A stretch of 32,382 nt of DNA from a virus: the IMG/VR virus record IMGVR_UViG_3300026882_000104, one strand, 5' to 3'. The notes beneath the pieces are model-generated. The model was not told the origin of the DNA and did not search any database. It saw only the letters and a list, made by a program, of their open reading frames with translations. The position numbers and the translations under genes are program-made. This document shows positions 13,297-14,151 of the stretch, one piece after another. How positions within the stretch are numbered: the stretch's first letter is position 1; the number at the start of each line of letters is the position of its first letter.

Positions 13297-14151
13297 TTAC
13301 TTTTCGTTTGGCCACTCTATTATATCCGTATGGTTCAGATACTCCTGCACATATGGAACTCTTGTTGGAAGACCAACAGCCTTCCTCGCATTTATCCAGT
13401 AGTTCGCAAGAAATATTTTGACCACTTTCCTCCTAGCTGTCATGTATGCTTTTCCTTTGGGTTTACCTTTTTTCAACTCCTCCGTATAGAACTGTTTATA
13501 GAGCTTTTGTCCGAAACACTCGTGTTTGATAAAGGAGTCTGCAATTTTGAACGCTAGAACCCTTGCATTCTTATTCCAGTCTGGTATCTCATCCCCCCTC
13601 ATAGACGGTGCGCACGAATAGGGTTTGGGTTGTTCGCAACTGCAAATCCACCCCCTCACTCTTTTTTCTGCATCCTCTTTCTTGAACTGCGACCCATTCT
13701 TCCTTCTCTGCGCCATATCCTCAAGTCTCTTCACCATCTTCTCTATGAACTTCTGCTTTTCTAGTTCTGAGTCAAAGTACCGCTTCTTGCAGTTTTCACA
13801 TCTCTTGATTACGTGAAGACCAGTATAAGCCCACATCTTGCTTATTGTGTCGAATTTGGAACAGTCGCCATATATTGAAACGAGGTTTGCGGCAAGTATT
13901 ATTCCAATCCCTTTTACGTGAGACAGCCAGGGTGACACTGGAGAGCTGACCACATATGCTTGGAACGCCCTTGGTATCGCCTTCTCCATCCTTACCACGT
14001 CTTCCAAGACTGAAGAAAGAACCTTTGCCTCTTCCTGCGACTGGTGGCTTCTCTCTTGCTTTATCGCTCTCAGCCTGTTTTCCAGAGCTATTCTCGACTT
14101 CTGCAGGTCGTAATACAAATCAGTTAATGCTCTTATTGAAGTTTGCTCCAT
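13297..14151 (-). CDS. Nop-domain RNA-binding protein (TIGR-associated TasA-like; IS110 C-terminal-like, no RuvC) with CxxC...CxC insertion
   Basis: N-terminal coiled coil (YYDLQKSRIALENRL), VKGIG..LAA, F.TISKMWAYTGL, WN..ARVLAFKIADSFIK and AYMTARRKVVKIFLA. No DEDD N-terminal domain. Adjacent to the 36-nt array. Confidence 0.85.
   Translation of the reverse strand: MEQTSIRALTDLYYDLQKSRIALENRLRAIKQERSHQSQEEAKVLSSVLEDVVRMEKAIPRAFQAYVVSSPVSPWLSHVKGIGIILAANLVSIYGDCSKFDTISKMWAYTGLHVIKRCENCKKRYFDSELEKQKFIEKMVKRLEDMAQRRKNGSQFKKEDAEKRVRGWICSCEQPKPYSCAPSMRGDEIPDWNKNARVLAFKIADSFIKHECFGQKLYKQFYTEELKKGKPKGKAYMTARRKVVKIFLANYWINARKAVGLPTRVPYVQEYLNHTDIIEWPNEK

Follow-up and report, generated by a model that had tools for sequence, protein, structure and literature searches.

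A conserved Cys4/helical domain on the wedge loop of nuclease-less, dual-repeat TasA proteins

The 32,382-nucleotide stretch IMGVR_UViG_3300026882_000104 (hereafter the window) encodes a nuclease-less TIGR-associated Nop-domain protein, TasA, at positions 13297..14151 on the minus strand (an open reading frame (ORF) of 284 amino acids plus stop codon, to which all residue numbers refer). In a phmmer search of the PDB, the protein matched TaTasR best (9mty_A, E 5.3e-25) and, next, TasH from the Salicola phage CGphi29 (SpTasH; 21kl_A, E 2.6e-12). An AlphaFold2 model built on an alignment of 93 relatives had a mean predicted local distance difference test score (pLDDT) of 93.9 and a predicted template modelling score (pTM) of 0.88, and Foldseek ranked TasH first for this model, then TasR, then the IS621 bridge recombinase. 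Superposition of the model by VIA-align gave Z 20.5 against TasH (9w04_B; root mean square deviation (rmsd) 2.7, 219 residues aligned, model 1-284 on chain 66-308) and Z 20.3 against TasR (9mty_B; rmsd 2.2, 198 aligned, model 3-284 on chain 111-322). The product of 13297-14151 is a Tas protein with a coiled-coil plus Nop fold, encoded beside a TIGR array; because its chain starts where the HNH domain of TasH and the RuvC domain of TasR end, it is of the TasA subtype, without an N-terminal RuvC or HNH domain. The same Nop-type C-terminal fold was recovered in the IS110/IS621 bridge-RNA recombinases (8wt6_A, Z 14.3), which share the Pfam family Transposase_20, and in archaeal Nop5 (1nt2_B, Z 8.1); unlike these, the window TasA has neither a DEDD/RuvC domain nor a catalytic Ser region, and it is accompanied by a guide array rather than by a single bridge RNA (IS110/IS621) or scattered snoRNAs (Nop5).

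The gene (minus strand throughout) begins with a coiled-coil dimerisation hairpin (residues 3-69; 13945..14145; model helices 3-31 and 39-69), which aligned to the coiled coils of TasR (from residue 111) and TasH (from residue 66). The helix-hairpin-helix part of the Nop C-terminal domain follows (residues 76-114, ending in WAYTGLHV; 13810..13926), recognised by Pfam as Transposase_20 of the IS110 family (E 5.8e-05) and aligned to TaTasR up to residue 214. After the wedge-loop module (residues 115-181; 13609..13809), defined as the gap between two pieces matched to TaTasR, comes the rest of the Nop domain (residues 182-284; 13300..13608), aligned to TaTasR 227-319 and TasH 253-302 and holding the basic APxxRG..DWN return strand of the wedge, R197 and F201 on helix alpha-4, and Y267 and H274. 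The last two fall, in a sequence alignment, on Y289 and H296 of SpTasH, the residues that cut pre-tigRNA (PMC13421893), and are the C-terminal Tyr/His pair of dual-repeat Tas proteins, with a putative role in pre-tigRNA processing. F201 aligned with TaTasR Y238, the aromatic member of the aromatic-basic unwinding pair (bioRxiv 10.64898/2026.08.11.744272); its basic partner is probably R197 or K194, the residue count of TaTasR used here not reproducing the published K233. When the full protein was co-folded as a homodimer, its score was equalled by that of an unrelated control, and the result counts neither for nor against a dimer.

An earlier note on this DNA had described an AYTGL motif followed by RCENC, a run of charged helices and CSC before the Nop fold resumes, and this order was confirmed by both the TaTasR match and the model. 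The motif WAYTGL lies at residues 106-112 and is followed by R117-C118-E-N-C121, 48 mostly helical residues and C170-S-C172. The phmmer match to TaTasR (9mty_A) came in two pieces (query 12-115 on chain 120-214, and query 190-281 on chain 227-319), leaving about 75 residues of the window TasA opposite 13 of TaTasR, so that about 62 residues are inserted. Since the split point (TaTasR 214-227) falls inside G210-K230, which has been defined as the 'wedge' of TaTasR (Methods, bioRxiv 10.64898/2026.09.09.750476), the insertion forms the tip of the wedge hairpin, an already named loop. Compact-wedge relatives read H-V-V-D-G-K-A-P-K-R-K-K-G-E-K-x-N-W, the D-G-K turn being the site of the module here, and the conserved A-P-x-x-R-G-x-x-x-D-W-N resumes after the return strand of the module. 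In the model, the module runs in the order beta strand, CxxC knuckle (then a beta bridge), helix 129-149, helix 158-166, CxC and beta strand, with pLDDT values of 91-98 in the full-length protein; an 85-residue segment folded alone from a 55-row alignment had a pLDDT of 86.9 and unchanged secondary structure. Residues 115-181 carry a net charge of +8 and contain no His. As regards relatives outside the Tas family, VIA-align of the lone module against 48,161 representative chains gave a best Z of 4.4 (rmsd 2.5, 48 residues aligned), to a generic helical hairpin, Foldseek produced no match below E 3 (best E 3.1), and the ESM Atlas, searched by features and by shape, held no convincing relative.

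The distribution of the module was examined by an exhaustive HMMER search of 1.84 billion cluster representatives, which yielded 2,422 relatives at E values up to 0.001, and wedge types were sorted in the best 150 of these (clusters at 50% identity). Within this set, 70 relatives had a compact loop of about 18 residues, 42 had the CxxC / about 50 helical residues / CxC module as in the window TasA, to which they were 26-43% identical overall, 7 had a short CxxC...CxxC zinc ribbon, a handful had a helical module without Cys but with a K-R-aromatic motif, and one had an intein of about 355 residues. The recurrence of the CxxC...CxC pattern in 42 further representatives at this level of divergence takes it beyond chance, and the module belongs to a large group of dual-repeat TasA proteins without a nuclease (at least 42 clusters) and not to this virus alone. 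The nuclease-free Tas subtype of the earlier note is therefore nuclease-free, as proposed, but is not a one-off. The zinc-ribbon variants (for example, P0104, P0127 and P0140) likewise place two Cys pairs at the wedge tip, with 41-55 residues in a CxxC...CxxC arrangement and no helical hairpin; their resemblance to the module is one of pattern. The intein-like insert belongs to P0111 (629 amino acids), has a homing-endonuclease-like middle and the end ...VVHNC, and indicates that the wedge tip tolerates very large inserts; altogether, the tip accommodated inserts of 40 to 355 residues, intein included.

In trees computed on the core only and left free, module bearers were scattered, with 22 changes on 150 rows and 7 changes on 47 rows, and the window TasA stood with good local support among compact-wedge relatives, grouping with P0036, which is TaTasR-like in length and sequence. 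An approximately unbiased (AU) test did not reject a single clade of module bearers (p 0.069), and neither a single origin nor repeated gain and loss of the module is established by the trees and this test; tas lineages may have acquired, lost or swapped the module on several occasions. A phage collection contained distant partial matches to Tas genes, 82 of the 88 records being mycobacteriophages and the others Gordonia, Rhodococcus, Microcystis and Salicola phages, and a scan of viral contigs with the single window TasA protein found no relative.

The TasA proteins described so far, FpTasA of Flavonifractor plautii, PlTasA and BlTasA (PMC12045711), likewise consist of a coiled coil and a Nop domain only, without RuvC or HNH, and the 62-residue Cys4/helical module sets the window protein apart from them as judged by their descriptions. 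PlTasA has a short 'hairpin A' plus loop at the wedge (T222-T245), and in BlTasA the wedge region overlaps intragenic guides, whereas no repeat-like sequence was found inside the window tasA gene; both are stem-loop systems, whereas the window TasA goes with a dual-repeat array and has retained the Y/H processing pair. The 'wedge insertion' has already been catalogued as a variable category (bioRxiv 10.64898/2026.09.09.750476), and the searchable TIGR-Tas papers and supplements contained no conserved Cys4/helical wedge domain and never named zinc or cysteine in that context. By this comparison of descriptions, the insertion appears not to be standard in known TasA proteins. The system, the TasA class and the wedge insertion are known, and what appears to be new here is a conserved Cys4/helical wedge domain in dual-repeat TasA.

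Seven Cys residues are present in the window TasA, of which only C118, C121, C170 and C172 are kept across relatives. The first putative zinc knuckle (13789..13800, minus strand) comprises C118 (13798-13800) and C121 (13789-13791), and the second (13636..13644, minus strand) C170 (13642-13644) and C172 (13636-13638), followed by P175; all four codons were checked. The Cys4 assignment of the earlier note was correct, with the single amendment that a fifth nearby Cys, C180, is not conserved (Val makes up 45% of that column). The complete conservation of C118 and C121 among the 42 module-bearing representatives is not independent, since this pair belonged to the pattern by which they were chosen. 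Of about 53 long-wedge relatives, 45 had all four Cys; where these were missing, most or all had gone, as expected of a single metal site. Two short Cys pairs at hairpin turns, conserved together, correspond to a Cys4 zinc knuckle or zinc-ribbon-like arrangement, and the most likely function of C118/C121 and C170/C172 is to coordinate a single zinc ion at the foot of a basic helical hairpin. Among the same 42 representatives, K123 (76%), R124 (69%), R142 (79%) and P175 (93%) were conserved, as was a basic turn at 149-151, and the median net charge of the module was +5.5; the KR plus aromatic residue was retained even in the Cys-less helical forms.

Two Cys pairs often frame HNH domains, and the module sits near the displaced DNA strand, so that a degenerate or unusual HNH, or another metal-dependent nuclease with which the DNA would still be cut, had to be considered. 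We regard such a cryptic nuclease as highly improbable. Pfam recognised no HNH or RuvC family in the window TasA, as the earlier note had anticipated from the missing catalytic patterns, and the model begins where the nuclease domains of TasH and TasR end. A scan of 55 clade members one by one at E 0.1 also returned no HNH family, no conserved His, Asn or Asp column was present between the Cys pairs of the 42 representatives, 17 of which have no His there at all, and no HNH protein was among the 50 best of the 48,161 chains in the fold search with the lone module. His is also absent from the module of the window protein, and there was thus no sign of a degenerate HNH.

TaTasR (PDB 9mty, from a Thermoproteota archaeon) resembles the window system in being dual-repeat, with 36-nucleotide, 9+9 guides, and in its coiled coil and Nop domain (the Z of 20.3 above), but its N-terminus is a RuvC domain of 110 residues and its wedge is 21 residues long, whereas the window TasA lacks RuvC and exceeds that wedge by about 62 residues. 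SpTasH (PDB 9w04, 21kl) shares the core (Z 20.5), the Tyr/His pair and the spacer type of the window system, and uses its wedge loop and beta-hairpin as the docking surface for its N-terminal HNH domain (PMC13421893), whereas the window TasA has no HNH and the wedge itself is enlarged. Across the 150 relatives, an N-terminal extension of at least 60 amino acids accompanied a wedge insertion of at least 40 amino acids in 1 of 76 cases and a compact wedge in 19 of 74 (Fisher p 5e-06, in counts that are not phylogenetically independent, as relatives share traits); extensions of at least 90 residues were found in 0 of 45 module-bearing and 8 of 69 compact-wedge proteins.

The dual-repeat TIGR array of the window (12405..13265, minus strand) comprises about 24 units of 36 nucleotides, in which the edge repeat ATGRAACCCA alternates with the loop repeat ATGCGAGCCA every 18 nucleotides. 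The variable stretches consist of 8 bases plus a mostly conserved A, the 'N8A' type described for SpTIGR of the Salicola system (supplement of PMC12045711), and the last element of the array is a single edge repeat, after which comes a T-tract, in agreement with the published description. A T-rich spacer of 31 nucleotides (T8CT7AACC...; 13266..13296, minus strand) separates the tasA stop codon from the first repeat, and its T8CT7 tract is a possible tasA terminator, a possible TATA-like element for the array, or both. The array is irregular at two places, a 26-nucleotide half unit after 12977 (12952-12977) and a 32-nucleotide gap before the last two repeats (12415-12446), which may be units that have decayed or recombined. 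TIGR arrays are translated by gene callers and in ORF lists as repetitive pseudo-proteins with 'MGFI...' or 'HETH...' runs (window 12544-13269, both strands); the 111-amino-acid 'gene' after tasA in locus L003 (L003:5880-6215) is an array, and the 54 extra N-terminal residues of P0025 look like the product of reading through an array.

Five of six member loci, the window excluded, adjoin dual-repeat arrays, the sixth contig being too short to show one. The period was 36 nucleotides, with nearly the same repeats, in L003, L008 and L011, about 37 in L001 and about 40 in L010. In the last of these, clade member P0028 (L010:1950-3069) is flanked by TGAGACCCA-type repeats about 40-42 nucleotides apart, not 36, which suggests longer spacers in this system. 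Module bearers thus stand beside ordinary dual-repeat arrays, contrary to the general statement in the literature that the Nop core stays compact in dual-repeat Tas proteins, and the canonical arrays imply that the module did not arise to suit guides of another shape. This bears on a possible role of the module in stability or on the guide RNA, in which it would stiffen the wedge hairpin (for example, against heat) or grip tigRNA or pre-tigRNA for loading or processing. The wedge loop does contact tigRNA and keeps its two loops apart (bioRxiv 10.64898/2026.09.09.750476), the occurrence of zinc ribbons (41-55 residues) and Cys-less helical versions at the same site looks like structural tinkering, and the element carries archaeal replication genes. 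With the clade guides being of the canonical 36-nucleotide dual-repeat type, however, there is no new RNA feature to accommodate, and the conserved KR-aromatic motif and basic patches exceed the needs of a mere brace, so that we consider such a role quite unlikely.

The array contents differed between close relatives more than the protein did. The same element was found in a second sample (L002), where the array is identical and tasA differs at 3 of 855 bases, while the arrays at L006:3856-4790 and L007:3856-5420 differed in length from that of the window and shared only 2-4 of 41-68 spacer halves, despite TasA proteins that were 87-92% identical. The guides therefore turn over much faster than the protein, a pattern as in defence or inter-virus conflict.

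Archaeal-type genes for replication and repair, in a block on the minus strand at 3295-12067 of the window, encode a DUF3987 protein, an AAA ATPase, a Dam methylase, a Cas4-like nuclease (6341-7042, 6 kilobases from tasA), an RFC small-subunit-like protein, an XPF protein with HhH2 and an AAA_24 protein, and a MoxR-type ATPase and an integrase are also encoded in the window, in which no DNA polymerase was recognised. The RFC-like clamp-loader gene was closest to those of haloarchaeal tailed viruses in the phage collection, in which a neighbouring 594-amino-acid protein had no match. The element looks like an uncultivated archaeal virus or provirus. In L003:5001-6956 and L004:1747-3702 (a 43%-identical relative), tasA and its array are directly followed by a gene for a PD-(D/E)XK (Cas4-like) nuclease, an adjacency absent from three other loci.

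The earlier note had proposed that the module is an arm recruiting a partner such as RNA polymerase, XPF, the Cas4-like nuclease or the integrase, for which no evidence was obtained. In its general form, a zinc-anchored hairpin would dock an RNA polymerase, nuclease or recombinase of the virus or its host and deliver it to the target. The module does lie where TasH has part of the docking site for its nuclease domain (PMC13421893), in the raw counts it hardly ever occurs together with a long N-terminal extension, and TasA operons with a ParB-like partner have been published (PMC12045711). The Cas4-like gene directly after the array in L003 and L004, with another 6 kilobases away in the window, would also fit, but the ORFs upstream of tasA in the window, L001 and L003 bear no relation to one another, and no nuclease gene lies beside tasA in L008, L010 and L011. 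As neighbours differ among the clade loci, a conserved partner gene beside tasA was rejected. The sole hint of a partner was a weak Pfam match of residues 109-152 to the antiterminator Q family ('Antiterm', E 0.0025), but at 18.4 bits it was below the cut-off of 26.7 and restricted to 5 of the 55 members, all close relatives, and Foldseek reached Q-lambda only at E 7; identity with antiterminator Q was likewise rejected. Finally, the conserved non-Cys residues are mostly basic, pointing to nucleic acid rather than to a protein. Taken with these observations, recruitment appears unlikely.

A role in cis, on nucleic acid, is the simpler reading, because published structures place the wedge loop on the displaced strand. 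By analogy with the solved TasR, TasH and TasA complexes, two TasA copies would pair via the N-terminal coiled coil, the Nop domain would bind the box C/D-like repeats, Y267/H274 would cut the array transcript into 36-nucleotide guides, and the two 9-nucleotide spacers of a guide would pair with opposite strands of an 18-base-pair site, leading to its unwinding. TasA proteins are RNA-guided repressors of transcription that act by binding alone (bioRxiv 10.64898/2026.09.09.750476), known TasA proteins likewise have an adjacent TIGR array (bioRxiv 10.64898/2026.08.11.744272, 10.64898/2026.09.09.750476), and binding without cleavage is expected here by analogy. Because there is no nuclease domain, the outcome would be binding and no cutting, a roadblock to transcription or replication, as experimentally shown for other TasA proteins. 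In Tas complexes the wedge loop parts the non-complementary strand from its partner (PMC12045711), and the hairpin of the window TasA would, as in the solved complexes, separate and cap the displaced strand at each unwinding junction. With the 62-residue module in place of the wedge-loop tip, this cap may be larger, rigid and positively charged, covering or clamping the displaced strand or adjoining duplex; it would take up the room that the docked nuclease domain has in TasH and TasR and would prolong the unwound, bound state in a protein whose sole output is occupancy. We give about an even chance to this interpretation, in which a zinc-stabilised basic cap over the displaced strand strengthens binding without cutting.

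Several observations weigh against it. The link between a large wedge and the absence of a nuclease was not significant on independent branches, where informative pairs were too few, so that the view of the earlier note that the module stands 'instead of a nuclease' holds in the raw counts (1 of 76 against 19 of 74) and met an underpowered test on independent pairs. Pfam recognised nothing in the N-terminal extensions of the compact-wedge relatives, whose nuclease nature is assumed from position. Zinc binding is predicted from the sequence, and the basic surface would also fit RNA binding or a protein partner. No spacer target was found in the window or related elements: none of 134 joined 18-mers (from the window, L006 and L007, in both geometries) matched 58 kilobases of these sequences at up to 2 mismatches, and matches at 3 mismatches were as many as expected by chance.

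In a broader reading, which we put forward tentatively and with considerable doubt, the wedge tip is a second, hitherto unnoticed 'effector slot', an alternative to the N-terminal nuclease, at which, in many dual-repeat TasA proteins, a zinc-anchored basic helical hairpin without known fold relatives clamps the strand or docks a partner, giving a long-lived roadblock.

TIGR-Tas proteins are among the smallest RNA-guided DNA binders, need no flanking motif and are being adapted as repressors, activators and editors. For this family, the window locus and at least 42 related clusters represent a sizeable exception to the rule that dual-repeat Tas proteins have a compact Nop core, with a probable zinc-binding domain on the loop that handles the displaced DNA strand, found so far only where the long N-terminal extension, the position of the nuclease in TasR and TasH, is absent. 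If the module prolongs binding, as in the cap interpretation, it would explain the potency of nuclease-less systems and provide a ready part from which tighter synthetic repressors might be built; recruitment of a partner, if real, would represent a new class of RNA-guided delivery. Under both readings, the wedge tip is an insertion-tolerant site that could serve engineering and, should it be an effector slot, it would be a natural place for grafting functions onto very small RNA-guided proteins.

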